64,000 nucleotides of DNA from Gammaproteobacteria bacterium (GCA_963422205.2 CAXMWX010000005.1:576001-640000), one strand, 5' to 3'; positions 13,761 through 32,236 are shown, numbered from the stretch's first letter. The notes: generated by a model from the letters alone, not told the origin. Numbers and translations: made by a program.

Positions 13761-14702
13761 ATGCCAAATAAATCCCATGTTAACAAAAGCCATATCGCCA
13801 TAAACAGTCAAAAGAAAAAGGGTATCAGGCACAGTTCTGAAATTAATATAACAACTCATGAGACCCAAAATACCCTCCATGCCGTTTTTATTGAAGACGC
13901 TGTACACATCTTAAAGCAACTCCCTGACTCTTCCGCTCAACTGATATTGATTGATCCCCCCTACAATTTAGCTATGGACCACTGGGATGCTTTTGATAAC
14001 TACCTGGATTGGGCGAGGACATGGATAGATGAGATCTTCCGGGTATTATCCGATACTGGCAGTTGTGTGATTTTCGGCGGTTTCCAATACCAGGACTTGA
14101 AACAAGGCGACCTGCTGGAAATACTGCATTACACAAGGCATTATACCCGGCTCCGTTTCATAAATTTAATTATCTGGTATTACAAAAACGGCATGAGTGC
14201 ACAGCGTTTTTTTGCCAACAGGCATGAAGAGGCAATATGGCTGTCAAAGACAAATAAGTATTATTTTAATCTTGATTCAGTGAGAGTACCCTATAGTGAG
14301 GAGACCAAAAAACTTTATAAAAAAGATAAGCGATTAAACCCTGAAAGTGTGGAAAAGGGGAAAAACCCCACAAATGTTTGGGAAATAAGCCGGCTTAATG
14401 GAAACTCAAAAGAAAGAGTCGGGCACCCTACGCAGAAACCGGTTGAAGTAATTCGCAGATTTGTACGAGGATTATCATACCCCGGTGCTACGGTTTTAGA
14501 TTTTTTTGCCGGCTCAGGCACCACCGGGCGCGTTTGTATAGAAGAGGGGAGAAATTCTGTGCTGATAGATAATGATCCCATGTTAAAAAAATACCTCCAA
14601 TTACATCTATCTCAAATAAAAAATGATATGTTTATCACGCCTTATTCAATTCTAAACAACATAAGTGTGGAAACGGCAATAGATAAAATATTAAAAAATT
14701 GA
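13761..14702 (+). CDS. Beta-class N6-adenine DNA methyltransferase, M.RsrI-like (predicted GAATTC)
   Basis: DPPY before FAGSG; NGMSAQRFFANRHEE, KDKRLNPESVEKG, RLNGNS.ERVGHPTQKP segments match M.RsrI as recalled; AT-rich. Confidence 0.88.
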   Translation: MPNKSHVNKSHIAINSQKKKGIRHSSEINITTHETQNTLHAVFIEDAVHILKQLPDSSAQLILIDPPYNLAMDHWDAFDNYLDWARTWIDEIFRVLSDTGSCVIFGGFQYQDLKQGDLLEILHYTRHYTRLRFINLIIWYYKNGMSAQRFFANRHEEAIWLSKTNKYYFNLDSVRVPYSEETKKLYKKDKRLNPESVEKGKNPTNVWEISRLNGNSKERVGHPTQKPVEVIRRFVRGLSYPGATVLDFFAGSGTTGRVCIEEGRNSVLIDNDPMLKKYLQLHLSQIKNDMFITPYSILNNISVETAIDKILKN

Positions 14703-14722
14703 TTATTTAGAACAGATGTAGC

Positions 14723-15180
14723 ATGAAAAAGAACCAGGCAGACAGACTTAGCAAGCAACACAAAAAAGTAAAGGTCAAGGGGGGATATTTGGAAAGTCTG
14801 CACAAAAACACGATGTTTCAGTTAAAGATGTATCAAAGCTGGCATTTCAATCGCTTGTGAAAGAGTTTCCAGGGCTGGCATTTCGCTATCGAGAACAAAT
14901 TCAAAAGAAAGCAATTAATCAAAAGCTAAATGAACTGGATAGTCGGCTAGGCATTACGCTTTATGTGGCAAAATCTGCTATTAAGCCTGATGGCGGAATC
15001 ATTGAAGTGAAGGATAAACAAGATCGATGGAGGATTGTTCTTGTATCGGAAGCAAAACACCAGGGGAAAGATATTGAAAATATCAGCAAAGGAGTTTTAG
15101 TCGGGAAAATGAAGAATCAAGACATTATGGTCGCAGGAAATGCCATAGAACGATCTCATCCAGATACTTTACCTGGATAG
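14723..15180 (+). pseudogene. EcoRI/RsrI-family restriction endonuclease, frameshifted and 3'-truncated
   Basis: MKKNQADRLSKQHKK, then a shift at an A6 tract into SKGQGGIFG..IKPDGG..EAKHQGKD..GNAIERSH; similarity ends abruptly near 15160. Confidence 0.85.
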
Positions 15181-15987
15181 ACGCCGGGCCAGCGATTTTA
15201 ATATCGCAATGCGTTCGGTGGATGAGGGATGTGTGCCGACAAATCCACCTTGGCGATGTTTCTGTGATTTATACAATAATTCCTGTAACCTGACGGCGGC
15301 TTGGGGTTCAAACCCGGCCTCAACCATCCAGACTGTACCGATATAATCGGCCTCACGCTCATTCTCCCGGCTGTAGCGGGTGGCCTCGGCCGTGCGCCAG
15401 GACGATGCCGTCCGGCGGCTTTTTTGCCTTGCCTCCTCGCCATGATCAAGCACGATATGGCCCAACTCATGGCCGATCAAAGCAGCCGCCATGTGCATAT
15501 CATCACCCAGCATATCCAGCATGGCAAAATTGATACCGATCAGGTTTATCTCAACCGCCTCATCATCCTCAGCAACCTTGCCCGGCGGGCCGCCTGTTGT
15601 CCTGGCCATCACGCCGGAACCGCTGGCCTGCTGCTCACGTTTTTTTGCCATCTCCTGCTCTGTGAGTAACCGGCCCTTGACCTTGGTGGCAAAGGCATTC
15701 GGCGCCTGGCCATCGACAATCACCAGCATGGCATTGACCTCAGCAGCCTTTTCGATCCCCTTCAAGGCCGCATAAATACGCAGCAACTGCCGGGTGGGCA
15801 AGGTCTTCAGCAAGCGTCCTTTATCATCATGCAGATCAACCGTATCACCATCGCTCGCCAGCAGGTCACGCACATCCCAGGTGTAAGTGAACGGCGCAGC
15901 TGAGACGATATTGACCGACAGTAATGAGACGATGCAAAGAACAAGCCATCGGTGCTGATATGTTTTTTTACGCTGACATGTACGCAT
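15169..15987 (-). CDS. M48-family zinc metallopeptidase, exported
   Basis: PNAFA, HELGH, EREAD, THP motifs; N-terminal signal. Confidence 0.85.
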   Translation of the reverse strand: MRTCQRKKTYQHRWLVLCIVSLLSVNIVSAAPFTYTWDVRDLLASDGDTVDLHDDKGRLLKTLPTRQLLRIYAALKGIEKAAEVNAMLVIVDGQAPNAFATKVKGRLLTEQEMAKKREQQASGSGVMARTTGGPPGKVAEDDEAVEINLIGINFAMLDMLGDDMHMAAALIGHELGHIVLDHGEEARQKSRRTASSWRTAEATRYSRENEREADYIGTVWMVEAGFEPQAAVRLQELLYKSQKHRQGGFVGTHPSSTERIAILKSLARRLSR

Positions 15988-16270
15988 AGCTTTACCCTGA
16001 TAGAGATAAACCGCCGCTATCCACTGGGACGATACGGCAACTGTTTAGTTTCAGCAAGCCAGCAGATACCCGGCAACACCCGCCTGCCCCCCTTGGCCTT
16101 GCAACATGGTTATTTTAATATACACAAAAACAACCAGTTACAGCAGGCTTGCAAGTCATCTGCAAATGCCCGATATTAAGCCGCTTAATCAAGGCAAAAG
16201 ACAACCCGCCTCGCCCAGGACAGGCCGGGGAACATTATGCCGCCGCCACTATCGAAAACCATAAGGCTGT

Positions 16271-17074
16271 ATGGCAGACACAGACAAGATGAATACCAGC
16301 ACAAAACCCCTGAAAATTGCCATGGGGATCGTGATCGCAGGCATCGGCTTGTCTGCCTGTGTGAGTACGCCCACCAGGCCCCCCACCTCCAGCACGAGCG
16401 AACTCTCCGGGCCGCCGCAGGCATCAGGCAAACAGACAGACAGCGAGGCCACCGCCGAACAACACACCACGGCAACACCGCCAGCGCAACCCCAGACCCA
16501 GCCCTCCGCTGAACACACGGACAACACCGCCGCCAGCAGCCGGACAGATGATGAAATTCTGGCAGAGGCGCTTGAAGTCTTTGCCGGGCAATCCAAAGAC
16601 ATGGACGGGGACATGGGCGGCGACCCGCCCGGCAGTGCGAACACAGAAGCCGAAAAAACCGAGCAGCTTGATGAGGAGTTAAATGATCGGTTTGCCGAAT
16701 TCGATCGCCTGATGTTAAAGAAACGCCAGGCAGTGCAAGCCGAGGCTAACCGTGAGGGCAGCGGTCGCCGCATGGACCTGGGCAATGGTTCGGGCAGCAA
16801 CGGCGTATTCGGCGATGAGGATGGCGACATGGACGCCCTGCACAGCGCCAATGCCCGCCCGTCACGGCCATCGCAAGACAGCCGCCAGCGCCATGGCAAT
16901 GAGCCTGTCGCTGCCGATGTGCAAAGCGAAAGTCACGTGCCGGAAGATCTCGCCAGTACGGAAGGTGATGATGTGATCGCCCGGCAGTTGCGCGAGGCGG
17001 CAATGAAAGAACCTGATCCGGAATTACGGGAGAAACTGTGGGATGAATACCGTAAATACAAAAAGAGCCTGTGA
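16271..17074 (+). CDS. Hypothetical lipoprotein, largely low-complexity, ordered C-terminal helix
   Basis: Lipobox LSAC; C-terminal DDVIARQLREAAMKEPDPELREKLWDEYRKYK. Confidence 0.7.
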   Translation: MADTDKMNTSTKPLKIAMGIVIAGIGLSACVSTPTRPPTSSTSELSGPPQASGKQTDSEATAEQHTTATPPAQPQTQPSAEHTDNTAASSRTDDEILAEALEVFAGQSKDMDGDMGGDPPGSANTEAEKTEQLDEELNDRFAEFDRLMLKKRQAVQAEANREGSGRRMDLGNGSGSNGVFGDEDGDMDALHSANARPSRPSQDSRQRHGNEPVAADVQSESHVPEDLASTEGDDVIARQLREAAMKEPDPELREKLWDEYRKYKKSL

Positions 17075-17075
17075 G

Positions 17076-18275
17076 ATGAATGTTGCCAACACGCTGCCCG
17101 CCGTGCTGCTGTTGTTTGCCGGCCTGGTGCTGTCCGGTTGTAACTCCACCACGGTCAAGACCACCGCACACGAGCAAGTGATCACCGCCAATGACAGCCT
17201 GCCGGAAGACCTTATCCTTGATGTCGGCATAGGTATTTTTAATCCGGGCGTGGATAGCCTGAGCGCCAGAGAGGAAGGCGTGTACCCGCAGATCCGAAAG
17301 GCCGAGGCCCGTTACATGCCCCGCCTCATGCAACAGACCCTGCAACAAACGGGCAACTGGGGCGCTGTGCGGGTGATCCCTGAGCGCCTGAGCGAGATGG
17401 ATGTCTGGGTGGATGCCGAAATTCTCAGATCCGATGGTGAAAACCTCTGGTTACAGGTGCAGGTGCAAGATGCCAGCGGGCGGGTGTGGTTCAATAGAAA
17501 ATACACCGAACAAGCGAGTAAATTTTCATACGATACCGCCATCGGCGGACGCGTGGAGCCTTTCCAGGGGCTGTATAACAAAGTCGCCAACGACATGCTG
17601 CAATACCGTCGGCAGTTGAGTTTCAATGAACTGCAAACCATACGCACAGTGGCTGAATTGAAGTTTGCCAAGGCGTTCACTCCGGCGTTGTACAACGGGC
17701 ATCTGCAAGCCGACAAGCGCGGGCGGTACAGTATCACCCGCCTGCCAGCGGCGGGTGATCCGGTGTTTGCGCGGCTGCGGCAGATCCGGGAGCGCGACCA
17801 TATCTTCGTTGATACATTGCAGCAATACTATGACTCTTTTTACCGCCAGATGGAGGTGCCCTACCGGGAATGGCGTGAAGCCTTCTACATAGAAAATGCG
17901 GCCTTGAAAGAAGTGCGCTCACAGGCAAATGCCCGCCTGATTGGCGGTCTGCTGGCCGTTGCTGCCGGCATCCTCGCCCAGGGCAGCGGCAGCCGCACAG
18001 CACGCTCGGCCGGGGCGGTTGGCATCGGTGCGGGCGCCCTGGCTGTGCAAAGCGGCTTGGGCAAACGCCAGGAAGCCAAGATTCACGTTGAGGCGCTGGC
18101 AGAAATTTCAGACTCCCTGAATGCGGAGATCGAGCCACACACAGTGACGCTGGAAGATCGCACAGTGACGCTGACCGGCACAGTAAAAGAACAATATCAG
18201 CAATGGCGTCAGCTATTAAAAGCCATCTACCACAGCGAAACCGGACTGGCAAGTACGCCGCCAGATCAACGGTAG
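17076..18275 (+). CDS. Hypothetical lipoprotein with glycine-zipper-like segment
   Basis: Lipobox LSGC; LIGGLLAVAAG..AGAVGIGAGALAV; starts 1 nt after upstream stop. Confidence 0.75.
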   Translation: MNVANTLPAVLLLFAGLVLSGCNSTTVKTTAHEQVITANDSLPEDLILDVGIGIFNPGVDSLSAREEGVYPQIRKAEARYMPRLMQQTLQQTGNWGAVRVIPERLSEMDVWVDAEILRSDGENLWLQVQVQDASGRVWFNRKYTEQASKFSYDTAIGGRVEPFQGLYNKVANDMLQYRRQLSFNELQTIRTVAELKFAKAFTPALYNGHLQADKRGRYSITRLPAAGDPVFARLRQIRERDHIFVDTLQQYYDSFYRQMEVPYREWREAFYIENAALKEVRSQANARLIGGLLAVAAGILAQGSGSRTARSAGAVGIGAGALAVQSGLGKRQEAKIHVEALAEISDSLNAEIEPHTVTLEDRTVTLTGTVKEQYQQWRQLLKAIYHSETGLASTPPDQR

Positions 18276-18429
18276 ATGCAGGCACAGCCGGACCGGATGG
18301 ACATATCCTGCCCGGCTTGAATGCGCGCTGGCGGCCACGGCTTCCCGAACTTCACGCCGCCTGACCGATACCGGCACTGTCACAGACGAGCGCCGGATTC
18401 AGGCACTGCTTTGAAAAAAATACGCTTCC

Positions 18430-19992
18430 ATGACAAACGCTAATCAGACAAATTCCGGCGTAAGAAAAATTACCCCTGTCAGCATCAAGCCAGGCAACCC
18501 ATCTCACATAGCCGCCGCACAGGCAGACAAACCCATAGCCGCCAACACGCTGTTGCTGGTGATGTTGCCGGTGGTATTTCTGGCCGCATTGGCGGTGATC
18601 TTTGTCCTGCCAGCGATGATCAGCACGCCTGAAACACAGGCCCCCGCTATCGGCCAGCAGCAGGATGATACACCTGCCAAAAATACCGCGGCGACTCGCA
18701 ACCCCGCCGACAGAGCGGCGGCGGCCATATCTCCATGGGAGATGGCACAACAAAGCGAATTACGCAAGCAAACCCAGCATATCCTGGCCGAGATGCTGGA
18801 AGCACAGCAAACCCTGACGGCAAAAGGCGTTGAGGTCTGGGCGAGCGCAGATTATGCCCGGGCGATGCAACACGCCGAAGCAGGCGATCAGCACTACAGC
18901 AAGCAGGACTTCAGCACCGCAAAGACAGAATACAGCCAGGCCCTGGCCATCTTCTCAACGCTACTGGAACGTGTCGATACCCTGTTTGCCGAGGCGCTGC
19001 TTGCCGGACAGCAGGCCCTGCTTGCAGGTGATGCCATTGCCGCCCACACCGCATTCGATCGGGCCCTGCTCATTGATCCCATCGATCGAAAAGCACTGGC
19101 AGGCAAGGCAAGGGCTGAGAACATAGCCGAGGTGTTTGCCCTGCTAAGGCAGGGCGAGGATCTGTTGCAGGAAGACAAACTCTCCGAAGCAAAGGCTTAT
19201 TTTCAACAAGCCTATACCCTGGATAACGCACTGCCGGTGGCGGCCGAGAGGATCCAACACGTGGATGCGTTGATAGAAAACCGCAAGTTCAGCAAGGCCA
19301 TGTCGGCGGGTTTTCAGCAGTTGCAGAATAATCATCTGCAACAGGCACGGCAATCTTTCTCCGATGCCCTTCGCATCTCGCCGAACTCCAAGGATGCCAT
19401 TGCCGCCCTGAACCAGACCAGACACAAGATCACAGCCAATAACATCGCCAGGTTGATGCAACAGGCGAGGGAGCATGAACATAACGAGCAGTGGCCAGAG
19501 GCGCTGGAGAATTATCAAGCGGCCTTAAAACTCGATGCCAATCTTTTGAGCGCACAACAAGGCATCAGCCGGGCACAGCTCTGGGCGGACATTCACAAAA
19601 AAATGACCCAGATTCTCACCCGACCTGAGCGCCTGTATGATCCGGCGGTATTCGCTGAGACGACAACCTTTCTCGCCAATATCAAGCAAGTCGCTGCACC
19701 GGGCGAGAAATTCAAGGCCAAGCTCGCCCGCTTGACCACGGCAATTGCCAGGGCCGGTAGCCCGGTCCCGGTGCGTTTGCAGTCCGACAACAAAACGCAG
19801 ATCAACCTGTATAAAGTGGGGGAGTTAGGCCAGTTTGCCGATAAAGAGCTGGTACTGCGCCCCGGCAGGTATGTCGCTGTGGGGCAGCGGGAGGGCTATC
19901 GTGATGTCAGGGTGGAATTTTTTGTTGAACCCGATAAAGCCATCGAGCCGATCGTGATCGTCTCGCAGGAAAAAATAGCGCTCAGCAAATAG
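18430..19992 (+). CDS. Single-TM TPR-repeat protein with PEGA-like C-terminal domain
   Basis: N-terminal TM; TPR-like repeats (AFDRALLIDP, FSDALRISP, YQAALKLD); LRPGRYVAVGQREGY tail. Confidence 0.75.
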   Translation: MTNANQTNSGVRKITPVSIKPGNPSHIAAAQADKPIAANTLLLVMLPVVFLAALAVIFVLPAMISTPETQAPAIGQQQDDTPAKNTAATRNPADRAAAAISPWEMAQQSELRKQTQHILAEMLEAQQTLTAKGVEVWASADYARAMQHAEAGDQHYSKQDFSTAKTEYSQALAIFSTLLERVDTLFAEALLAGQQALLAGDAIAAHTAFDRALLIDPIDRKALAGKARAENIAEVFALLRQGEDLLQEDKLSEAKAYFQQAYTLDNALPVAAERIQHVDALIENRKFSKAMSAGFQQLQNNHLQQARQSFSDALRISPNSKDAIAALNQTRHKITANNIARLMQQAREHEHNEQWPEALENYQAALKLDANLLSAQQGISRAQLWADIHKKMTQILTRPERLYDPAVFAETTTFLANIKQVAAPGEKFKAKLARLTTAIARAGSPVPVRLQSDNKTQINLYKVGELGQFADKELVLRPGRYVAVGQREGYRDVRVEFFVEPDKAIEPIVIVSQEKIALSK

Positions 19993-19999
19993 GCCGCCA

Positions 20000-22102
20000 T
20001 TGCTCAACACACGTATGACTGTGGATACCAAACACACTCACGACAGGCAACGCACCGCATCAAGGCAGATAACACCGGCAAAATTTATCCCCCAGGAAAA
20101 CTTGCTGGGCAACAGGCAAGGGCGGTGGCGTATTAACAGGCCGCTGGTGCTGATCTCTGCCGCCCTGTTACTCATTGCCAGCATCGTGTTTTTTCTGCTG
20201 ACGGCGAAGGCCATCCACATAGAAACCGAGCCAGCGCAAAGTGATATAACCATCGCCAGCCGGCTGATGTTCAAGCTGGGCACAAGCTACCTGCTGCTCC
20301 CCGGCGAGCATAAGATAGCGCTGGCCGCCCCTGGCTATTACGACCTTGAAGAGAGCCTGGTTGTCGGCAGTAAGGGTCAGCAAAAATTCTTCTTTCAGTT
20401 GGACAAGCTGCCCGGCAGCTTAAAGGTAGAGACGGGTGCGCTAACCGGTGCTGAGGTCTTGCTTGATGGTGAGCGCAAGGGAAAGACACCGGTGGTGATT
20501 AACGCACTACCAGCCGGCAGGTATAAAATCGATATTCTCCTGGAGGGTTATCTTCCTCACACAGAGGAAGTTGACCTGAAAGGATTAGGCAAAGAGAACC
20601 ACCTGAAGGCGGAGTTGCTGCCCGCCTGGGCCGAAGTCAGCTTTACCTCCCGGCCTGAAAATGCCGAGTTGTATGTTGACGATACGCTGATCGGCCAGAC
20701 TCCCTTAACCACCAATATCATGCAGGGACAGCACACAGCCAGTGTAAGACGGCGTGGGTATAAGCAATGGCAGCGCACCCTCAAGGTGACGGCGGGGGAG
20801 GCGCAGCGCTTCGATGAGATTACGCTGGCACCGGCCGATGCCACGGTGGTATTGCAGTCGAAGCCCAGTGCCGCCAGCGTCACTGTCGATGGTAACTACC
20901 AGGGCTTAACGCCGATTGAGTTTGCCGTCACGCCCGATACAACTGCCCGGATCAGCCTGTTCAAGCAGGGCTACAAACCGGCAGCACACACAGTCAAACT
21001 GGCATCCGGTGAGCAAAAGCACGTCACGATCACGCTGGCTGCCCGCCTGGTCGAGATCGTGTTCAGCGTTGAACCGGCCGATGCCGAACTGTATATCAAC
21101 GGCAAGCGGCAAGCGGCGGCAAACACCCGCATTCAACTGCCCGCCCGCCAGCATAACATGGAAGTAAAACGTGACGGCTATGTCACGGTGAGCAAAAACA
21201 TATCACCGCACAGCGGGCTGGTGCAGCACGTGCGTGTGCGGCTGAAGTCATTGCAGGAGGTGAAGCGGGAATCCGTACAACCCATCATCAAGACCTCTGC
21301 CGGCCAGACGCTTAAATTATTCAGGCCCGGCGAGTTCACGGCCGGTGCCTCACGCCGGGAGCCAGGCCGGCAGGCCAATGAAACCCTGCAAAAGATCCGG
21401 CTGGGACGAGCGTTTTATATGAGCCTGCATGAAGTCACCAATGCACAGTACAAGCTGTTCAAACCCGGCCATTCAGCCGGCCGGATACAGGGTCACTCAC
21501 TGGATCAGGGCAGCCACCCGGTCACCAGGGTAAGCTGGCAGGATGCCGCAAAATACTGCAACTGGCTTAGCCGCCAGGAGAAACTGACGTCTTTCTATGA
21601 GGAGAGTAACAGTAAGATTGTCGGTATAAACCCGGCTGCCGATGGCTATCGCCTGCCCACGGAAGCGGAGTGGGCCTGGGCTGCCCGTACCCGGGCTGAC
21701 AAGCCGATGTTGAAATTTCCCTGGGGCGGCCAGATGCCGCCGACAGAGAAGAGTGGTAACTTTGCCGATACCAGTTCGGCCAATTTTATTGGTAAGATCA
21801 TCGGCGGGTATAATGATGGCTTTCCGGTCACGGCACCTGTGGGCAGTTTCATGGCGAATGACAAGGGGCTGTTTGATATGGGCGGCAATGTCGCTGAATG
21901 GGTCAATGACTTCTATGATATCGCTGTCAGTCAAAAGACCGTCCTGCGTGATCCCTTAGGGCCGAAAAGCGGTGAGTTTTATGTTATCCGCGGCTCTGGC
22001 TGGGCACATGGAACGATTACCGAATTGCGTTTGTCTTACCGTGATTATGGTAGCGAGCCCAGGGACGATGTGGGCTTCAGGATTGCGCGATTTTTGGAGT
22101 GA
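20000..22102 (+). CDS. Single-TM protein with PEGA repeats and C-terminal FGE-sulfatase-fold domain
   Basis: Repeated S.P..A...VDG...G.TP PEGA units; HEVTNAQY, VSWQDA, YRLPTEAEW, DMGGNVAEW, GFRIA. Confidence 0.85.
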   Translation: MLNTRMTVDTKHTHDRQRTASRQITPAKFIPQENLLGNRQGRWRINRPLVLISAALLLIASIVFFLLTAKAIHIETEPAQSDITIASRLMFKLGTSYLLLPGEHKIALAAPGYYDLEESLVVGSKGQQKFFFQLDKLPGSLKVETGALTGAEVLLDGERKGKTPVVINALPAGRYKIDILLEGYLPHTEEVDLKGLGKENHLKAELLPAWAEVSFTSRPENAELYVDDTLIGQTPLTTNIMQGQHTASVRRRGYKQWQRTLKVTAGEAQRFDEITLAPADATVVLQSKPSAASVTVDGNYQGLTPIEFAVTPDTTARISLFKQGYKPAAHTVKLASGEQKHVTITLAARLVEIVFSVEPADAELYINGKRQAAANTRIQLPARQHNMEVKRDGYVTVSKNISPHSGLVQHVRVRLKSLQEVKRESVQPIIKTSAGQTLKLFRPGEFTAGASRREPGRQANETLQKIRLGRAFYMSLHEVTNAQYKLFKPGHSAGRIQGHSLDQGSHPVTRVSWQDAAKYCNWLSRQEKLTSFYEESNSKIVGINPAADGYRLPTEAEWAWAARTRADKPMLKFPWGGQMPPTEKSGNFADTSSANFIGKIIGGYNDGFPVTAPVGSFMANDKGLFDMGGNVAEWVNDFYDIAVSQKTVLRDPLGPKSGEFYVIRGSGWAHGTITELRLSYRDYGSEPRDDVGFRIARFLE

Positions 22103-22308
22103 AGATGCGAGATATTGTTTTTATCCTCTTACTGCTTGGCATGAGTCCATCGGCGGCGCAAAAGACCGCCGATCAGGATACAGACGAGAAAACCGATAAA
22201 AACACAGAGAAAACACAGGCAACAGAGCAGGAACGGCGGCCGGAGGTGTTCAATCCAACAGAACAACTCTCCGAAGACAAAGACATTTCTTTCCCCACGG
22301 ATATCTAG
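22099..22308 (+). CDS. Small exported hypothetical protein
   Basis: Signal peptide; ends FNPTEQLSEDKDISFPTDI; overlaps upstream stop and ends 2 nt before next start. Confidence 0.65.
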   Translation: MKMRDIVFILLLLGMSPSAAQKTADQDTDEKTDKNTEKTQATEQERRPEVFNPTEQLSEDKDISFPTDI

Positions 22309-22310
22309 CG

Positions 22311-23114
22311 ATGTTAATGAAGCATAACCCGGTCTCGGATTTTCTCTACCAGCTATTTGCCCTGTTCATCTCCATCATCATTGTGCATGCTGTCTATGTC
22401 ACCCTCATCAGACCAAAAGCCGATGCCATACTCGAACAGCAGCGTAGCAGGCAGGAGGCAGGACAGAGTTATGAAATAAGGCGCTCGGTGTATATCGTCA
22501 TCAAAGACTTTGAACAGGAAGCCTGCTTTATTCTCGCCTTCTGGGTAAGTGCCATCATCGGCCTGAAGACCAAAATCGCCCTGCAGGAAAGAAGACTGCT
22601 GACACGCTCACTGCTCAAAGTAACGCCCGGCACCCGTATATTGCCACAGGATGCCCGACAGTATGCCAGACCCATACAGGCATTGGCTGAGGATGAGCGC
22701 GAATTTTTATTGCCGCGGGCCTTATTGGCGGCATTGCAACGGTTTGGCTCAACGGCCAATATTCAGGATGTCTCAACGGCAATACGTGAGACCTGTGAGA
22801 CTGAATCTGATCGGCTGGATTCTGAGTTGTCCATGGTGCGCTACATCATCTGGGCAATACCCTCTATCGGTTTCATCGGCACAGTCCGGGGGATTGGTGA
22901 AGCCCTGGGCCAGGCACACAAGGCCGTAGAAGGGGATATTGTCGGTGTGACAGTGAGCCTGGGGGTGGCGTTTAACTCAACCTTCATCGCCCTGATTATC
23001 AGCATTCTGATCATGTTTTTAATGCACCAGTTGCAGTTATTGCAGGAGCGCCTGGTGCTGGATACACAGAACTATTGTGATATAAATTTATTACGCCACC
23101 TGCAAGTACGCTGA
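22311..23114 (+). CDS. MotA/TolQ/ExbB proton-channel family protein
   Basis: IPSIGFIGTVRGI and LGVAFNST TM motifs. Confidence 0.88.
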   Translation: MLMKHNPVSDFLYQLFALFISIIIVHAVYVTLIRPKADAILEQQRSRQEAGQSYEIRRSVYIVIKDFEQEACFILAFWVSAIIGLKTKIALQERRLLTRSLLKVTPGTRILPQDARQYARPIQALAEDEREFLLPRALLAALQRFGSTANIQDVSTAIRETCETESDRLDSELSMVRYIIWAIPSIGFIGTVRGIGEALGQAHKAVEGDIVGVTVSLGVAFNSTFIALIISILIMFLMHQLQLLQERLVLDTQNYCDINLLRHLQVR

Positions 23115-23127
23115 CGGAGAGAGGCAG

Positions 23128-24450
23128 GTGAGAGTGATAGCAGAGCTCAATGACAGCAACATCACTGTCGCAACGATCAGCCGAATCATTGCCATGAGTC
23201 CCGGTGTTGCGATCATACGGGATGATACCATTGAACTGGGACAGGCGGCAGCAGACAAGCTGCACTTGTATCCACAAAATGCACACACACGATTCTGGAG
23301 TGAGCTCAATCTGGATAGGTTAAAAATCACATCAGGGCTGGCACGCCACCATGCCGATCTTGCATTTGCCCATATCGGCTTGATCCATGAACTGGCTGGC
23401 AAGCCTGAAGAGCTGGTGCTGGCTGTGCCTGGCAGTTTCTCTGAGAAGCAATTATCGCTGCTGGCCGGCCTGCTTGAAGCCGCCCCGTTTCAGGTTACCT
23501 CCTTGGTCGATACTGCCGTGGCCGCCATTGCCAGCCATCCAATCGCCGGACATTGTCAATACGTTGATATCGTCTTGCATCAAATCGTGATTACCACCGT
23601 GGAAGTCACCGACAGGGTACGGCTGATAACAACACAGGTGCTGGATGATACCGGCCTCTCAGCGGTTTATGATAACTGTGCACAGGTGATTGCTGATCTG
23701 TTTATTGCCCAATCCAGGTTCGACCCATTGCACCATGCAGAGACCGAGCAACGATTGTATGACCGGCTGCCCCACTGCTTGCAGTCGCTAACGCAACAAG
23801 ACGAGACCGTATTCGTGATTGACTATCAGCAAACGCCTCATCAGGCCAAGGTAAAACAGCAGGCACTGGCGGCTGCCCTGGCCGGTATGTGTGATAAGCT
23901 GAACGCCGTCCTTAACCCCGACATGACCACTGTACTGAACAACAGAGTAGCGCTGATCCCGGGCCTGCAAACACAACTGGATGGGGCCGTTGTGCTTGAC
24001 AGTCACGCCGTGTTTGCCGGGGCCTGCCTGTTCCCGCTACCGGCCGCCGATGACAGTCATGTTAATTTTGTCACCGAAATACCGCTGGATACAGCCGCTG
24101 CCCCGGTGAGAACAACTGCCAGCACACCGGCCCCGTCTCAGCCAACAGCAAGCCCCCCTGCCGCCACACACCTGCTGATTGCACATGAGGCCCACCCGGT
24201 CACAGACCGGCCGCTTTATCTGCATCTAAATAACAACAGTTTAGCGCTCAGTGATAAAAAAGCAGCGACTAACTGCGTTTTTCAGCAACGCCAGGGAAGT
24301 ATCCAGCTTGCCTGTGATGCGGCGGCTGATATTACGATCAACGGACAGATGGTAACCGGCAATCACCGGCTGGTTTGCGGTGATATGATTCAAACAGTTG
24401 CAGGGCAGATAACAGCCATCCGCATCAAAGACGAACATGAGCCGACCTAA
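23128..24450 (+). CDS. Degenerate Hsp70/actin-fold protein with FHA-like C-terminal domain
   Basis: SPGVA, LVLAVPGSFSEKQ, LVDTAVAA, EQRLY follow the DnaK nucleotide-binding-domain motif order; ITINGQ..LVCGDMI resembles an FHA tail. Confidence 0.6.
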   Translation: MRVIAELNDSNITVATISRIIAMSPGVAIIRDDTIELGQAAADKLHLYPQNAHTRFWSELNLDRLKITSGLARHHADLAFAHIGLIHELAGKPEELVLAVPGSFSEKQLSLLAGLLEAAPFQVTSLVDTAVAAIASHPIAGHCQYVDIVLHQIVITTVEVTDRVRLITTQVLDDTGLSAVYDNCAQVIADLFIAQSRFDPLHHAETEQRLYDRLPHCLQSLTQQDETVFVIDYQQTPHQAKVKQQALAAALAGMCDKLNAVLNPDMTTVLNNRVALIPGLQTQLDGAVVLDSHAVFAGACLFPLPAADDSHVNFVTEIPLDTAAAPVRTTASTPAPSQPTASPPAATHLLIAHEAHPVTDRPLYLHLNNNSLALSDKKAATNCVFQQRQGSIQLACDAAADITINGQMVTGNHRLVCGDMIQTVAGQITAIRIKDEHEPT

Positions 24451-25525
24451 ACGAACACTCTCGGCATTCAGCCTGTCATTTCTCGATATCATGTCCTGCG
24501 GCTTTGGTGCTGCCGTGTTGTTGTTCTTGATCATTAAACACAAAGTCGATACCCCCGAACCCATACCCTTAACCAGCAAAGATCAAACCTCAGAAGTCAT
24601 GCTGCTGGAAGAGGAGATACTGACAGGGAAAAAAAATCTGGCCGCCTTACGCAACACCCTGGAGGCAATAGAAGAGGAGATGATAACAGCACAGGGACGG
24701 GCCAGGCAGGTAAGTTCTGAGATCAGGGAAGTGGCAATGCACACACAGGCCATTGAGCCAGATGCTGTGGCGGCTGAACTTGAGGCATTGAAAACCAGAA
24801 TCAAAAAACTGGAACAACAGAAAAACAGCATCGCAGCAGAGAACAGCAAGACGGGGGAACAGGCATTGAAAATCAGCGGCGAAGGCAATCGCCAATATAT
24901 CACGGGCCTGCGGCTGGATGGCAGACGCTCATTGATCCTGCTGGATATCTCGGCCAGCATGCTGGATCGTACTGTTGTCAACATCCTGCGTTTTCGCAAC
25001 CTGCGTGATGAGCGCAAGCGGCTGGCACACAAATGGCAACAGGCCATTAAGATCGTTGAATGGTTAATGGCCAACCTGCCGGCGGACAGTCAATACCAAC
25101 TCTACCTGTTCAATACCGATACGCTGTCTGCCTTGCCTGACAGCAAAGGTCGCTGGCTTGATGTGGACGATAAAACCACATTGCAAAAAGTCATCGAACG
25201 GCTCAAGCGGCAGGTGCCTGAAAACGGCACCAACCTGGAAAACGCCTTCATCGTGGCACGGCAATTACGTCCGGCGCCCGACAATATTTACCTGATTACT
25301 GACGGCCTGCCAACCCAGGGTTCCAGGACCTATCGTGGTGCAACGATTACGGCTAATCAGCGTCAGAAATTATTTGAAAGAGCGATTCAAAAACTCCCTG
25401 ACAGGTTGCCAATCAATGTCATTCTGACGCCTATGGAAGGCGATCTGCAAGCTGCGTTTGCATTCTGGCAACTGTCCCAGCGCACCAACGGTGCTTTTAT
25501 CAGTCCGCAAGAGGGCTGGCCCTGA
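24437..25525 (+). CDS. ExbD/TolR-like TM anchor + coiled coil + vWA domain protein
   Basis: SFLDIMSCGFGA TM with Asp; MIDAS DISAS, GTNL, TDG. Confidence 0.8.
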   Translation: MSRPKRTLSAFSLSFLDIMSCGFGAAVLLFLIIKHKVDTPEPIPLTSKDQTSEVMLLEEEILTGKKNLAALRNTLEAIEEEMITAQGRARQVSSEIREVAMHTQAIEPDAVAAELEALKTRIKKLEQQKNSIAAENSKTGEQALKISGEGNRQYITGLRLDGRRSLILLDISASMLDRTVVNILRFRNLRDERKRLAHKWQQAIKIVEWLMANLPADSQYQLYLFNTDTLSALPDSKGRWLDVDDKTTLQKVIERLKRQVPENGTNLENAFIVARQLRPAPDNIYLITDGLPTQGSRTYRGATITANQRQKLFERAIQKLPDRLPINVILTPMEGDLQAAFAFWQLSQRTNGAFISPQEGWP

Positions 25526-25534
25526 GGCAAAAAC

Positions 25535-26524
25535 ATGAAGCGAGAAAAACGGACACCAGATGCCTTCAGCATTGCCTTTCTGGATGTCATCACCTGCGGT
25601 TTCGGGGCGATCATCTTGTTGCTGATGATCGCCAAGACCGGTGATACACCGATACTGGAGACAGCGACAGAATCCCTGCAAGGCATAGTGCGTGATCTAC
25701 AGGTACAGCTATTTGAAATCCGTGGCGAAGCCAGGGTATTGAACCGCGACCTGACCGATAAAAAAGAGCAGCTGTCGCAATGGGATGAGCGCATCGCCAA
25801 GCTGCAAGCCGAACTGGCGCTTGCCAAAAAACGCCAGCAGGCCATACGCAATGATTCGACTTTCAATGCCATCATCAAAGGCGAGTATCAAACCGCACTG
25901 CAAAAACTCACCGCCGAAATGAAACGCCTGCTTGCACAGCAACAAACCGCACAGAACGATCTGGTGGCGGGGATCTCGGCGGATACCGAGTACCTGATCT
26001 TCATCATTGACACCTCCGGCAGCATGGTGAATAACCACTGGAACAGGATGATAACGGAAATGATCAACACGCTGGATGCCTATCCGAGACTAAAAGGCAT
26101 ACAGATCATGAGCGATATGGGCGAGTATCTGTTTTCCCAGTTTCGCGGCCGATGGATTCCCGATACCAGGGGCCGGCGCCGGGCGATTATCAGCACCCTC
26201 AGAGGCTGGCGCACATTCAGCAACAGCAATCCGGCGGAGGGTATCACCGCCGCCATACGCACATTTTATGATGACGGTAAAAAGATCAGCATCTATGTCT
26301 ATGGCGATGAATTTCCCGGCCGATCGTTTGCGGAAGTGCTGGCGATTGTTGACCGGATAAACCCGAAGGACAGAGATGGCAATACCAAAGTGCAAATACA
26401 TGCTGTAGGCTTTCCGGCAGGTCGGCAACAACATCCGCAATATCAATTTACCAACGAGCGGTTTGCCGGACTCATGCGGGAATTAACCTACAGAAATGGT
26501 GGCACCTTCGTGGGATTAAACTAA
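25535..26524 (+). CDS. Second ExbD/TolR-like TM anchor + coiled coil + vWA domain protein
   Basis: AFLDVITCGFGA TM with Asp; MIDAS DTSGS, YGDE. Confidence 0.8.
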   Translation: MKREKRTPDAFSIAFLDVITCGFGAIILLLMIAKTGDTPILETATESLQGIVRDLQVQLFEIRGEARVLNRDLTDKKEQLSQWDERIAKLQAELALAKKRQQAIRNDSTFNAIIKGEYQTALQKLTAEMKRLLAQQQTAQNDLVAGISADTEYLIFIIDTSGSMVNNHWNRMITEMINTLDAYPRLKGIQIMSDMGEYLFSQFRGRWIPDTRGRRRAIISTLRGWRTFSNSNPAEGITAAIRTFYDDGKKISIYVYGDEFPGRSFAEVLAIVDRINPKDRDGNTKVQIHAVGFPAGRQQHPQYQFTNERFAGLMRELTYRNGGTFVGLN

Positions 26525-26587
26525 AATGACAGGTACTCTGAAATCATTCGCTTATAAGCGGGTATAACAAAAACAGGAAAACAACGC

Positions 26588-27193
26588 ATGCGAACAGTGC
26601 AGATACTCCCATACTTGCTGCTAACGATGACCCTGCTGGCCTGTAGTCAGTCGGTCACCATGAAGGTAGCCCCCGATATTCCCGCACCACGGGTGGAACA
26701 ACTGCCGCTGACAATGGGGATTTACTACGATGACACATTCCGTCATTATGCCTACAAAGAAGATTCGGCAGAACGGCCTGACTGGACAATTAACAGCGGT
26801 GAATCGCAAGTCCTGTTATTTGAGCAGATTTTCTCATCCATGTTTGCCCGGACTGAACAGGTCGCCGGCCATGCCGCTAACAGCGGCGTGGATGGTATTC
26901 TTTATCCTGAAGTTATCGAGATGCAATTCGCCCTGCCTGCCGAGACAAAGACGGATTTTTATGAATACTGGGTTAAGTACAAAATTGCATTATACGATAA
27001 CCAGGGTAACTTCGTTGCCGACTGGCCGGTTACCGGTTATGGTAAATCCTCTACTGAATTTCTCAAGAGTCGCGACAAGGGGCTTAACGCAGCGATTAAC
27101 CAGGCATTGCGCGATGTCGGCGCCAAACTGGCGATCGACTTTACCAGGGTAAGCGGTGTGGCCAAATGGCTGGCGGACAGACAGGCCAACTGA
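26588..27193 (+). CDS. Hypothetical lipoprotein
   Basis: Lipobox LLAC; co-oriented in operon. Confidence 0.7.
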   Translation: MRTVQILPYLLLTMTLLACSQSVTMKVAPDIPAPRVEQLPLTMGIYYDDTFRHYAYKEDSAERPDWTINSGESQVLLFEQIFSSMFARTEQVAGHAANSGVDGILYPEVIEMQFALPAETKTDFYEYWVKYKIALYDNQGNFVADWPVTGYGKSSTEFLKSRDKGLNAAINQALRDVGAKLAIDFTRVSGVAKWLADRQAN

Positions 27194-27207
27194 GTGACGG
27201 AGATGCC

Positions 27208-27873
27208 ATGCAAATCATACGGTATAGCAAGCTGTTCAGCCTTATCATCGTATTAACGGCCTGCAAAAGCACAACGGTGATCGATCAGCACCGGGAATTG
27301 GTCAACACGAGTCTGCGTGCTGGTGAATCCGTTGTCGTACTGGGGCGGCGGCATAGCATCCGCCATGAGACAGAGGCAAAATTCATCAACTGCATCGGCC
27401 AGAGTCTCGGCCAGGGCGAAAACCGGATTCGAGTCATTCCAGAGAAGACCTTCATCGATACCATGTATCCGCATTTTGAAACCAGCACCGCCCCTGTTGA
27501 TGTAAAAAACCTGAAAAAACTTATGCAGAATCCGGCGCTCGCCAGCAAGTTTGATGAGTTTAATATTCGCTACTTCATCTGGATCGACGGCTCAACGGAA
27601 ACAACAGATAAATCCGGCTCAATGTCCTGTGCAGTCGGCCCGGGTGGCGGTGGCTGTTTCGGCTTCACCTACTGGAGCGATGAGGCCAACTATGAAGCCA
27701 GCATCTGGGATTTCAAGGGCTTAGCTATCAGCGGAAAAATCAATGCAGAAAGCAAAGGCACGTCTTTCATGCCCGCCGTGATCATACCGATACCGCTGCT
27801 GGCACAGGTACAAAGCAGCACCTGTAAATCCTTGTCCCGGCAGATCAAGGCTTTCATTGCCGAACAAAGTTAA
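27208..27873 (+). CDS. Hypothetical lipoprotein
   Basis: Lipobox LTAC; CAVGPGGGGCFG motif. Confidence 0.7.
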   Translation: MQIIRYSKLFSLIIVLTACKSTTVIDQHRELVNTSLRAGESVVVLGRRHSIRHETEAKFINCIGQSLGQGENRIRVIPEKTFIDTMYPHFETSTAPVDVKNLKKLMQNPALASKFDEFNIRYFIWIDGSTETTDKSGSMSCAVGPGGGGCFGFTYWSDEANYEASIWDFKGLAISGKINAESKGTSFMPAVIIPIPLLAQVQSSTCKSLSRQIKAFIAEQS

Positions 27874-29012
27874 TCCGCTAATCGCAGTAGCTGCCGATGC
27901 TTATTCAGCCCGGCAAAGAGCTGCTCAATATCATCCTCGTTATTATAAAAGTGTGGCGAGATGCGGAGCTTGTTATCACGACAGGAAGTGATCACGCCTT
28001 CCCGACACAGTGAGGAGACCAACGGATACATATCCGAGGTTTGTAATGTCACCATCGCCCCATGACCAGCCCGTTGCTCCGGCATCCCTAAACAATACCC
28101 CTGCTCCAGCGCACGCCGCTTAATCAATCCTGTTAAATCAGTGATAGCCTGTTCAATCACATCCAGACCCACCGCATTCACCAGCCTAAGGCCCGCAATA
28201 ACCGCATACAGATTAGGCACATTCGGTGTGCCGGACTCCAGCTTGCGGGCATTATCCGCCGGCTTATTGTGATCGCCATCCATCGCATTGATATCAGCCT
28301 GTGCGAACCAGCCACTGCTGGTGGGCGTGAAGCGATCCAGATGTTTCTTTTTGCTGAATAAAAACCCCGCACCGGCTGAGGCCAATAAATACTTCAACAT
28401 GCCCCCGGCGGCAAAATCCACATCCAGCGCCGCAAGGTTCAGGCGCATCGTACCCACAGATTGATAACAGTCCAGAAAGACCAGCGCGCCCTGCTGCCTG
28501 GCATGAGCAATGATCGGTTGCAGATCAAGCCTGGCACCGTTGCGGTAGCAGACATGCGGTAATGAGGCGATCAGCGTGGACTCATCAATACAGCGGATGA
28601 AGTTCTCCAGCGGAATCGTCTTACCATCGCTGGCAGCAGCAACCTGTACGCACTCAGCACCACGTCTCTCCTGTGCACGCCAGATCTGCGCTGTCGTGGG
28701 AAAATCAAAATCGGTCAATACCACCTGATTACGCTTGCCGCTGAAATCCAGGTTAGCCGCCAGGCTGTTCAGCCCGTCACTCAAGCTGGAGGTCACGGTA
28801 AGCTCATCTGCGTTTACCGAAAAAAAATCCGCCAGCATGGTACGCACCATCTCCAGTTGGCTCACCCAAAACTCCCAATGTGCACCATAGGCATCCCGAT
28901 CAGCCAGGTAGTGCAGGTAGGCTTCCCTGACATCCACAGACAGCGCACCATAAGAGCAGCTATTGATATACGCTCGCTGCCTGAAGATGGGGAAGCGTTC
29001 ACGCAATGGCAT
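27870..29012 (-). CDS. PLP-dependent class V aminotransferase/lyase (kynureninase/SufS-like fold)
   Basis: RERFPI..YINSCSYG, DCYQSVG, GGMLKYLL (PLP Lys), ESGTP, LRISPHFYN; start taken at ATG 29012. Confidence 0.85.
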   Translation of the reverse strand: MPLRERFPIFRQRAYINSCSYGALSVDVREAYLHYLADRDAYGAHWEFWVSQLEMVRTMLADFFSVNADELTVTSSLSDGLNSLAANLDFSGKRNQVVLTDFDFPTTAQIWRAQERRGAECVQVAAASDGKTIPLENFIRCIDESTLIASLPHVCYRNGARLDLQPIIAHARQQGALVFLDCYQSVGTMRLNLAALDVDFAAGGMLKYLLASAGAGFLFSKKKHLDRFTPTSSGWFAQADINAMDGDHNKPADNARKLESGTPNVPNLYAVIAGLRLVNAVGLDVIEQAITDLTGLIKRRALEQGYCLGMPEQRAGHGAMVTLQTSDMYPLVSSLCREGVITSCRDNKLRISPHFYNNEDDIEQLFAGLNKHRQLLRLAD

Positions 29013-29020
29013 GGATACGC

Positions 29021-30085
29021 CTAGTAATTGACCTTGGGGCTGCCTGCAGGATAGAAAACACCCATCAGACGCATACCCTCGGCACTCGTGCATTCCAGGG
29101 CATGATCCTGTTTGGCCGGCAGGAAAATAATATCGCCCGGCCCGACTGCTGCCTTGACTGTATCCGTCCACATCATGCCTGAACCTGAGAGGATATAAAT
29201 CACCTCTTCATAGAGATGGCGGTGATACGCTGCCTTGGATTGCGGGATCTCGCCAATAAATTGTGTCACCTGCTCACAGCCAAGCTGCTGATTGATCAGC
29301 TCCTGTAGAAAACGATCTGCCATCGTCTCACGCTTGTCTTCCGCATAGGTTCTTGTGCGCTCCGGCTGACTGATATCAAAATCAGTCGGCATGCTATCAG
29401 GCAGTATCAACTGAGCATCACCCGGGCAGACGGTGATCAGCGCATCAATCAACTCTCCACTTTCATTACCTAGAGAGAACACTTCTCCAGAGCGAATATA
29501 GGCACCAGTTTCCAACGGCATGGCAAAGGCTTTGCCCGAGATAATAATACTGCCAGAACCCTGGGAAAAAAACACCACTACCTCTGCACCTGGAAAGGTC
29601 ATAAGCGGTGAGGTGCCTTGTTCAACAAGCACGGTGTATTGCGCCAGATGTTTAGCCCCGGTTGCAGCGGATATGATGGGTGCTATCCGCAGATTGCCAT
29701 AGCGTTGCAGGGCAGCCGGATTACGCCGCAATACATAACAACCATTATCAAGCCGGGCTTGTTGTGAAACATTATCAATAAACGTACCGTAACCCGTCTC
29801 TGTAACATCAACATGGTCATCCGGCTCTGCTTCTGCATATTTATCGAGCAGGTTATTATGCGAACCATCGCAAAAAGGCGGGGATCTGGTATGTTTGCAG
29901 GCGCAAAAAATCCGTTCTTCATCTTGCTCGGGGACATAGCGTAAAGGTTTAAATTCTGTCCCCTCATGTGCACCATCACAAAACGGTTGCTTACTACTGC
30001 GTCCACAACGACACCAGGTATAAGGCCTGCCCGTCTTAAGCTGCACAAAGTAAGGTTTTAATCTGGCGATTACCGGCTCAGTCAT
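29021..30085 (-). CDS. Tandem CDGSH [2Fe-2S] domains fused to cupin domain(s)
   Basis: WCRCGRS..PFCDGAH and FCACKHT..PFCDGSH; C-terminal HRHLYEE..GDIIFLPAKQDH cupin motifs. Confidence 0.82.
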   Translation of the reverse strand: MTEPVIARLKPYFVQLKTGRPYTWCRCGRSSKQPFCDGAHEGTEFKPLRYVPEQDEERIFCACKHTRSPPFCDGSHNNLLDKYAEAEPDDHVDVTETGYGTFIDNVSQQARLDNGCYVLRRNPAALQRYGNLRIAPIISAATGAKHLAQYTVLVEQGTSPLMTFPGAEVVVFFSQGSGSIIISGKAFAMPLETGAYIRSGEVFSLGNESGELIDALITVCPGDAQLILPDSMPTDFDISQPERTRTYAEDKRETMADRFLQELINQQLGCEQVTQFIGEIPQSKAAYHRHLYEEVIYILSGSGMMWTDTVKAAVGPGDIIFLPAKQDHALECTSAEGMRLMGVFYPAGSPKVNY

Positions 30086-30417
30086 TTGTCATTGTCTTGC
30101 TGTATCAAAAGATCATTATAAAAATAATTGCTGTAATTGAAACCCTGCCCCTAGCCTTAAAAGACTAAACAACAAGCACAAGATAAAAACAGCCGATTAA
30201 GCCAGGGGAAATTTCGCTGATGTTGTGCTCCCGTTCCTTCATATACGGATCTTGCCACCCAGCTGGAAAGAGATATGTCATACAGCAACACCTATTTCAG
30301 CACACCAATAAACTTTGACAATACATGTTTTCCATACCGATGTTGAGACCGGCCTTCCTCTGACAGAAATACAGACAAAACATGTAAGCTGCTGCTGGCT
30401 GTATAAAAAAGCAGCGG

Positions 30418-31728: not shown

Positions 31729-31752
31729 ATTACCATTCCTTTATGATCAAAA

Positions 31753-32220: not shown

Positions 32221-32236
32221 ATTGATATGCTCCCAT

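Follow-up and report, generated by a model that had tools for sequence, protein, structure and literature searches.

A conserved gene cluster with a TolQ-family channel and paired vWA-headed partners in Gammaproteobacteria: a possible Tol-Pal-like envelope machine in addition to Tol-Pal

Within a 64,000 nucleotide (nt) stretch of DNA from a Gammaproteobacteria bacterium (GCA_963422205.2 CAXMWX010000005.1:576001-640000; hereafter the window, with coordinates counted from its first letter), we analyzed a cluster of eleven tightly packed open reading frames (ORFs), g1 to g11, which lie co-oriented on the + strand at 16271-27873. We tentatively read this cluster, with a confidence that stays somewhat short of even, as a Tol-Pal-like, proton-driven machine which exists in addition to Tol-Pal and would serve the maintenance or quality control of the outer membrane (OM). 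Gene content, conservation, motifs and folds of the cluster are direct observations. Eight genes (g1-g6, g8 and g9) form a core, and five accessory genes (g7, g10, g11, a TonB_C gene termed g0 and a gene for an M48 metalloprotease) complete a long form of 13 genes. The original prediction, made from the sequence alone, had described eleven co-oriented and closely spaced genes, and this is borne out by the ORF listing: the intergenic spacing ranges from −32 to +63 nt, with the exception of g2/g3 (154 nt). The domains named at that time (channel, vWA, Hsp70-fold/FHA, TPR, PEGA, FGE and four lipoproteins) were right in substance according to Pfam, AlphaFold/Foldseek and the lipobox motifs, and the predicted distribution of the products over cytoplasm, inner membrane, periplasm and OM is supported. 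In agreement with the prediction for this block, Pfam, NCBIfam and PADLOC yielded no match to TonB-dependent receptor, TolB/Pal, flagellar, Zorya or secretion-ATPase families among g1-g11.

The putative motor comprises g6, g8 and g9. The product of g6 (22311-23114; 267 amino acids, aa) belongs to the MotA/TolQ/ExbB channel family, as it scores 55.3 bits against PF01618 (MotA_ExbB; cut-off 22.9) and 57.1 bits in a genome-wide search, and its best NCBIfam match is TolQ (7.6e-6). Two threonines, T191 and T224, are invariant in all 86 sequences. The solved chain closest to the g6 profile is E. coli TolQ (8odt), and in this weak alignment (E 0.79) T191 and T224 fall on the threonines of TolQ GTVWG and IATA, the essential pore threonines of TolQ (see also PMC12204202). 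Sequence searches of the PDB with g6 and g8 gave no match.

The partners of this channel would be g8 (24437-25525; 362 aa) and g9 (25535-26524; 329 aa), two core genes of the same architecture, consisting of a membrane helix with an invariant Asp17, a coiled coil of approx. 100 aa and a vWA head with a metal ion-dependent adhesion site (MIDAS). While g8 exceeds the cut-off of Pfam VWA_2 (32.4 bits; cut-off 27), g9 reaches only 14.7 bits, which is below the cut-off, and is recognized as a g8 paralog by BLASTP (1e-12). Asp17 is present in 88/88 g8 and 86/86 g9 sequences within the context F-L-D-[IV]-x-x-C-G-F-G; together with the threonine pair of g6, this upholds the predicted combination of a channel and Asp-bearing partners. 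By eye, the helix resembles the equivalent stretch P[LY]IDV in the three true ExbD/TolR genes of the same genome. These three genes match PF02472, the periplasmic domain of ExbD, whereas g8 and g9 do not, and no ExbD-family gene was found inside the cluster using this model. Consequently, the label “twin ExbD-vWA” holds for the Asp-bearing membrane helix shared with ExbD and fails for the Pfam ExbD domain, which is absent. In the membrane, g8 and g9 would function like ExbD/TolR, yet they stand outside that family. The MIDAS signature DxSxS...T...D is kept in both proteins, and DTSGS is invariant in the g9 alignment. Since basic residues precede the helix, the N-terminus is predicted to be cytoplasmic and the remainder, coiled coil and vWA head, periplasmic. 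SMC/JetC coiled-coil matches on g8 and g9 were weak (NCBIfam, PADLOC).

The conservation of the cluster was assessed by a pattern search with an alignment of g7, which found relatives in 191 species genomes; 80 loci were kept for synteny. The hosts are isolates of Microbulbifer, Porticoccus, Elongatibacter and Biformimicrobium and many marine metagenome-assembled genomes. As far as the contigs reach, order and strand of g1-g11 are the same in 80/80 loci (tblastn). Matches were obtained for g7 in all 80 loci, for g6, g8 and g9 in 78 each, for g4 in 77, g10 in 72, g11 in 71, g3 in 68, g2 in 66 and g1 in 64; g5, short and divergent, was matched in 24. With the same order in these 80 loci and the eight-gene core in 16 further ones, the check by homology and synteny that had been proposed came out in favor of a conserved unit.

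However, the block at 16271-27873, although conserved as predicted, is incomplete. Clustering of the flanking ORFs in 53 loci showed that, in 43 of the 53 scorable loci, g1 is immediately preceded in the same orientation by an ortholog of g0 (12218-13573, + strand; 451 aa). This gene encodes an exported protein with TPR and TonB_C domains (Pfam TPR_12 and TonB_C), and the g0 ortholog of one other locus (L004) reaches 35.6 bits against TonB_C (cut-off 24.6). Orthologs of the M48 metalloprotease (15169-15987, − strand; signal peptide, HELGH motif, Pfam Peptidase_M48) occur in 40/53 loci, where 31 ORFs follow g11 in the same orientation and 10 lie upstream. Thirty of the 31 downstream ORFs lie within 180 nt of the end of g11 and one lies 711 nt away. 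The closest NCBIfam model of the protease is BepA (NF052400), with 32.1 bits in this genome and 127-154 bits for the long orthologs, compared to a cut-off of 570. Thus, g0 and the M48 protease belong to the conserved unit, which moves its upstream limit to 12218. In the genome analyzed, g0 appears to be split from the remaining genes by an insertion at 13761-15180, consisting of a DNA methylase (13761-14702, + strand; 313 aa, Pfam N6_N4_Mtase 6.5e-57) and a truncated EcoRI-like endonuclease ORF (14857-15180, + strand; 107 aa, matching profile positions 32-131 of 257), both of which are outside the system. In other loci, g0 abuts g1, and none of those examined has the restriction-modification insertion. 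Taken by itself, the inserted segment looks like a methylase left orphaned beside a truncated endonuclease, and the G+C content falls to 0.457 over 14001-16000.

A slimmer version, which consists of the eight-gene core, is found again in further lineages, even outside the class. In 12 distant loci, g1 (by its C-terminal motif), g2, g3, g4, g5, g6, g8 and g9 were found in unchanged order; g10, g11, g0 and the M48 protease were not found in these loci. g7 is absent from 9 of these first 12 short-form loci and from four further ones. In the other three (L117, L118 and L122), approx. 900 nt separate g6 from g8; in L117 and L118 this gap is occupied by a g7 of 307-308 aa consisting of the nucleotide-binding domain (NBD) only, and the gap of L122 gave no g7 match by tblastn. 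A g2 profile detected the system in 21/401 genomes sampled across the phylum, 17 of them from one family of another class, and four further loci are all short form (L142, L143 and L145 from this family and L144 from the class of the genome analyzed). Together, the loci form a natural series from no g7, over an NBD-only g7, to a g7 with an FHA-like domain accompanied by the protease.

At lower taxonomic ranks, the system was found, by a g8 relative, in 80/126 genomes of its own order (57/81 among those of high quality), always with one copy per genome and never with long and short form side by side. Presence is largely consistent within genera, e.g., in 22/23, 4/4 and 5/5 genomes for the genus labels g531, g516 and g3, respectively. 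Under another genus label, g2 (as before, not the gene of that name), some genomes have long-form scores (approx. 1e-120) and others short-form scores (approx. 1e-45), but never both, which suggests that one form was replaced by the other within this label. Some hosts have genomes of only 1.7-2.0 Mb. Overall, the distribution fits a physiological system which is kept vertically, with occasional loss or replacement.

The accessory protein g7 (23128-24450; 440 aa), present as described in the long form, is cytoplasmic. Its AlphaFold model, based on an alignment of 23 homologs, has a predicted local distance difference test score (pLDDT) of 89.7. Residues 1-320 match the NBDs of the Hsp70 family (BiP, DnaK and Hsc70; Foldseek E 5.8e-16 to 2.8e-14), with a TM-score, normalized to target length, of approx. 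0.65 against NBD-only chains, and residues approx. 345-435 are modeled as a beta sandwich. Pfam assigned no family to g7 of the analyzed genome, but FHA (PF00498) was called in the C-terminal region of 5/107 g7 homologs. In the alignment, the FHA-positive homologs read GR...SRLH, which we take to be the Arg, Ser and His binding phosphothreonine, where g7 of this genome reads HL...ATNC; its FHA-like domain appears to be degenerate. Similarly, g7 has ELNDS and DxHLH at the positions of the Hsp70 phosphate loops, the canonical sequences of which are DLGTT and DLGGG. An active chaperone is ruled out by these replaced loops and by the lack of a substrate-binding domain, in place of which the FHA-like beta domain is found. 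We infer that g7 is a non-catalytic scaffold with an Hsp70 fold and an FHA-like domain.

Hints about the partners of g7 come from the cytoplasmic tails of g3 and g4, two bitopic proteins of the core. The N-terminal tail of g4 carries the motif IxPxxFxP, in which I24, F29 and P31 are at least 90% conserved (30 sequences). The corresponding tail of g3 reads [FI]xxIxPxx[VIF]xL[TS] in the long form and was scored as [IV]x[PA]xx[VIFL]x[LFV]. The g4 motif was found in 62 of 63 scorable loci with a full g7 versus 0 of 8 without g7, and the g3 motif in 56 of 59 versus 0 of 8; these counts leave out one locus (L079) due to an ORF-extraction artefact. Two loci with an NBD-only g7 keep a tail motif similar to that of g4. 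Because the tail motifs track the presence of g7, the alignments suggest that g7 may dock on these two tails. Three long-form loci (L072, L073 and L075) have a longer N-terminal tail of g3, from which the motif is absent.

Outside the cytoplasm, both proteins continue, after one transmembrane helix each, with domains of a structural character. g3 (18430-19992; 520 aa) has a periplasmic TPR region (TPR_2, 1e-11 in Pfam), and its C-terminus looks PEGA-like by eye only, Pfam making no call. g4 (20000-22102; 700 aa) has four PEGA stretches (1.7e-52 in Pfam), a domain termed peptidoglycan-associating in PMC7159879, followed by a domain of the FGE-sulfatase fold (PF03781, 3.2e-41, profile positions 9-255 of 255). 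In the FGE region, g4 reads RGSGWAHGTITELRLSY, which contains no cysteine. The catalytic cysteine pair of FGE sits after the RGGSW motif; as this pair is absent, g4 is ruled out as an active FGE. Against the models of the gliding proteins GldK (TIGR03525) and GldJ (TIGR03524), g4 scored 115.7 bits (cut-off 350) and 63.1 bits (cut-off 458), respectively.

Between g4 and g6 lies g5 (22099-22308; 69 aa), a core gene for an exported mini-protein with a signal peptide and the C-terminus SFPTDI. An ORF ending with [FY]PxDI directly before the stop codon occupies the g4-g6 gap in 78/82 scorable loci, including seven short-form loci. In six short-form loci (L112, L113, L115, L116, L120 and L123), g5 has only 47-56 aa and appears to consist of an uncleaved membrane anchor and approx. 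12 further residues ending with FPVDI. Since little more than the anchor and these approx. 12 residues is left in the short form, the binding site of g5 should be near the inner membrane.

Four proteins, g1, g2, g10 and g11, carry a lipobox cysteine; for g2, g10 and g11, it is present without exception in the aligned sequences. The core lipoprotein g1 (16271-17074; 267 aa) has the lipobox GLSAC, as read from the sequence, and an acidic, disordered body of low complexity; conservation is limited to the last approx. 45 residues, and no Pfam family was found. For the core lipoprotein g2 (17043-18275; 410 aa; invariant Cys33), sequence searches in Pfam, NCBIfam and PDB were without match and the protein atlas gave unnamed clusters only. 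Its AlphaFold model (pLDDT 79.6) shows an alpha/beta domain, a helical hairpin of approx. 120 residues with a Gly-rich, hydrophobic, Gly-zipper-like tip, and a small C-terminal domain. Using Foldseek, the first domain was matched with DUF330 (2iqi, 6.8e-5), the Vibrio LPHT ring (8z5n), FlgT (3w1e) and PelC (5t11/9h80), and further with LptE, the TolB N-domain and CsgG. Judged from this model, the fold of the first domain is one which recurs among ring-forming OM lipoproteins.

The two accessory lipoproteins, g10 (26588-27193; 201 aa; invariant Cys19) and g11 (27166-27873; 235 aa; true start probably the ATG at 27208), gave no Pfam family in 22 members each, apart from stray single hits, and PDB sequence searches were empty for both; g10 thus represents an unnamed family. 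For g11, the clusters given by the protein atlas are DUF4136-like or of lipoproteins, and CsgG and CT253 are no more than leads. The g11 orthologs have four invariant cysteines (C76, C155, C164 and C220) beyond the lipobox Cys33 and a GPGGGGCFGF stretch. Their conservation hints at a compact periplasmic domain with two disulfides. Profile-profile comparison of g10, g11 and g2 aligned solely the signal peptide and lipobox; hence, paralogy is unsupported. In L072, L073 and L075, the g10-g11 pair was found relocated together upstream of g1, in inverted orientation.

From these components we infer assembly, partners and role as follows. A pentamer of g6 would enclose a heterodimer of g8 and g9, resulting in a proton-driven 5:2 motor in the manner of ExbD, TolR and MotB in their respective channels. 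The coiled coil of approx. 100 residues and the vWA head of g8/g9 may be long enough to cross the periplasm and to reach OM lipoproteins, so that the motor partners would end at a lipoprotein assembly of g2 and g1. There, the metal-site vWA heads could latch an acidic ligand, for which the FPxDI end of g5, the conserved C-terminus of g1, or g2 are guessed candidates. On the OM side, g2 would provide the anchor, its N-terminal domain being akin to the ring-forming lipoproteins PelC, FlgT and CsgG. The TPR protein g3 and g4, with its PEGA rod and non-catalytic FGE fold, may act as bitopic scaffolds similar to TolA or TonB, and the invariant C-terminal peptide of g5 as ligand or plug. The long form would use the pseudo-Hsp70/FHA protein g7 as a clamp on the tails of g3 and g4, via their short motifs, and would add a TonB_C-TPR adaptor, two more lipoproteins and a BepA-like protease.

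Several points speak for such a Tol-Pal-like machine acting in the upkeep of the OM: the hallmarks of channel and partners, the ring-lipoprotein fold of g2, the BepA-like protease, the conserved single-copy unit, its retention in genomes of 1.7-2.0 Mb, a separate Tol-Pal system in the same genome, the tail motifs that track g7 and the AlphaFold 3 model published for the family (PMC12204202). Other points weigh against it. The alignment of g6 with TolQ is weak (E 0.79). The system is patchy and therefore not essential: a g8 relative was detected in 36/400 sampled genomes of the class (9%; one of the 36, G039, is an unpublished genome), and the system is absent from 24/81 high-quality genomes of the order. 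Among long-form loci, L072, L073 and L075 are without the g3 motif and L052 is without the g4 motif. Further, long and short forms are clades, so the covariation between tail motifs and g7 rests on few independent events. Finally, the domain parallels with the Agl-Glt system (FHA, TonB_C, TPR, vWA and a heterologous TolR pair) fit motility equally well.

A bolder version of this reading, which we regard as doubtful, would make the cluster a third general route for the proton-motive force to the OM of Gram-negative bacteria, beside Ton and Tol. The axle subunits, each consisting of transpore helix, coiled coil and MIDAS vWA head, would then be force transducers which grip a ring of OM lipoproteins. 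The long form would be gated by a dead Hsp70/FHA clamp reading two scaffold tails, and its BepA-like protease would take part in OM quality control.

Instead of the OM as a whole, the machine could serve a single envelope product, i.e., an OM protein, a lipoprotein or an exopolymer, as a proton-driven device for assembly, export or quality control, in which the g2 ring would be an OM station like PelC or LptE and the cargo would be the substrate of the M48 enzyme. The matches of the g2 N-terminal domain to PelC, LptE, CsgG and DUF330 transport-auxiliary lipoproteins speak for it, and both a protease closest to BepA and LolA as a weak lead in 2/22 g10 members are in line with it. However, no OM barrel, synthase, glycosyltransferase, ABC or secretion ATPase or cargo gene is found among the 13 products. 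Moreover, the protease, g10 and g11 are missing in the short form and are therefore not central. We consider this explanation unlikely.

Even less probable, in our view, is an Agl-Glt-type engine for surface motility or adhesion, whose motor would move an envelope complex along the cell. Its appeal lies in the shared domain inventory (a TolQ-like pentamer with two TolR-like partners, FHA, TonB_C, TPR and vWA, according to PMC11761067) and in the FGE-fold proteins of Bacteroidota gliding and type IX secretion (T9SS), as indicated by the partial matches to GldJ and GldK. On the other hand, neither a surface-exposed adhesin nor an OM barrel like GltA, GltB or GltH was found, cluster and conserved flanks are without an MglA- or AglZ-like gene, the vWA heads are tethered to the inner membrane, and the GldK and GldJ scores are far under their cut-offs. 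The system, in addition, occurs in small genomes of a planktonic type (1.7-2.0 Mb).

Zorya contains a MotAB-like 5:2 motor. Envelope-sensing defense or signaling of this kind, with the motor reporting envelope damage, might be considered because of this shared motor type, the occurrence of vWA, FGE-fold and PEGA domains in conflict systems (PMC7159879) and the restriction-modification remnant within the cluster of this genome, but it is highly improbable, since PADLOC assigned no defense system to g1-g11 and gave just weak coiled-coil-type matches on g8/g9 (LmuB, JetC and PbeC; E 1.6e-4 to 9e-3), no nuclease, NTPase or other effector is present, the system is single-copy, largely genus-consistent and not island-like, and no other locus examined has the restriction-modification insertion.

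The genes beyond g11 do not extend the system. On the − strand at 27870-32331, a class-V aminotransferase/kynureninase-like gene is found together with genes for a CDGSH and cupin protein, an SNF-family sodium symporter and a RidA-family protein. These flanking genes are not kept beside the cluster, the aminotransferase being present in 0/92 loci.

To our knowledge, few jobs have been described for ion-driven 5:2 motors, namely flagella, Ton, Tol, gliding and Zorya, and the cluster would add another one. It is common in marine Gammaproteobacteria, and since culturable hosts exist (Microbulbifer, Porticoccus, Elongatibacter and Biformimicrobium), the system is open to genetics. The series of clamps (none, NBD-only, and with FHA and protease) can guide its dissection, and the parts list of eight core genes, accessories, invariant residues, tail motifs and FPxDI peptide makes a testable machine out of what had been published as a two-protein prediction.

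Among known systems, Tol-Pal (TolQRA, TolB, Pal and CpoB) shares several elements with the cluster: a channel of the TolQ family and its pore-helix partner bearing an Asp, a helical element which spans the periplasm and carries a globular head, a TPR protein, and OM lipoproteins at the far end. The cluster, in contrast, is without the periplasmic domain of TolR and without TolA, TolB and Pal, and here the pore-helix subunit carries its own head, a fused vWA domain. The genome has canonical tolQ-tolR-tolB-pal genes on another contig (C11), along with two further ExbB/ExbD sets; therefore, the cluster is an extra system. For g7, a parallel is provided by clamps of the PilM-PilN and GspL type, i.e., cytoplasmic actin-fold proteins paired with short N-terminal tails of bitopic envelope proteins. 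g7 is similar in having an actin/Hsp70-superfamily fold in the cytoplasm and conserved tails of bitopic proteins as putative partners, but its best structural matches are Hsp70 NBDs and it carries an FHA-like domain. g4 shares with GldK/PorK and GldJ, the ring lipoproteins of Bacteroidota gliding and T9SS, a non-catalytic FGE-sulfatase fold and the character of a periplasmic structural protein, but, with PEGA repeats and a single span of the inner membrane, it is no lipoprotein, and it scores far below the GldK cut-off.

The Agl-Glt/Nfs machinery of Myxococcus resembles the cluster in its AglR5:AglQ:AglS motor with two unlike TolR-type partners and in having a cytoplasmic FHA domain (on GltG), TonB_C domains, TPR proteins, a vWA lipoprotein and other lipoproteins, as described in PMC11761067. 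It differs in that the cluster has its vWA domain on the motor and its FHA-like domain on an Hsp70-fold protein, and is without OM barrels, the giant GltI, MglA and AglZ. OM-barrel, GTPase and giant-TPR families had no match in the 13 products in general Pfam and NCBIfam scans, in which no Agl-Glt-specific models were used.

No defense, Ton, Tol, flagellar or gliding model of NCBIfam or PADLOC covers the gene set, as had been anticipated. Nevertheless, the view of the original prediction that no system of such composition was known is not supported, as the motor core has been published as a prediction. Membrane-tethered TPH-vWA proteins (transpore helix and vWA), two different ones next to a tolQ-like gene and with tolR/exbD missing, are reported in PMC12204202 (Mol Biol Evol 2025). 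This paper describes a conserved Asp in the transpore helix and an AlphaFold 3 model of a pentamer with a dimer; the work is in silico, leaves the function unassigned and reports no phenotype. Judged by this description, g6, g8 and g9 have every stated feature, including a Proteobacterial distribution. The difference lies in the many added parts, which here make up an eight-gene core and a 13-gene long form. PEGA, sulfatase/FGE or Hsp70 partners are not mentioned in the text or supplement text of PMC12204202, figures aside, nor is any further partner named there, and apart from this work full-text searches found no paper joining these domains. Thus, the motor core is known as a prediction, and the remaining parts, the two forms and the motifs are undescribed as far as searched. 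Compared with the published TPH-vWA family, what is new is the full parts list, the pseudo-Hsp70/FHA protein which tracks the tail motifs of g3 and g4, the FPxDI mini-protein and the link to a protease.

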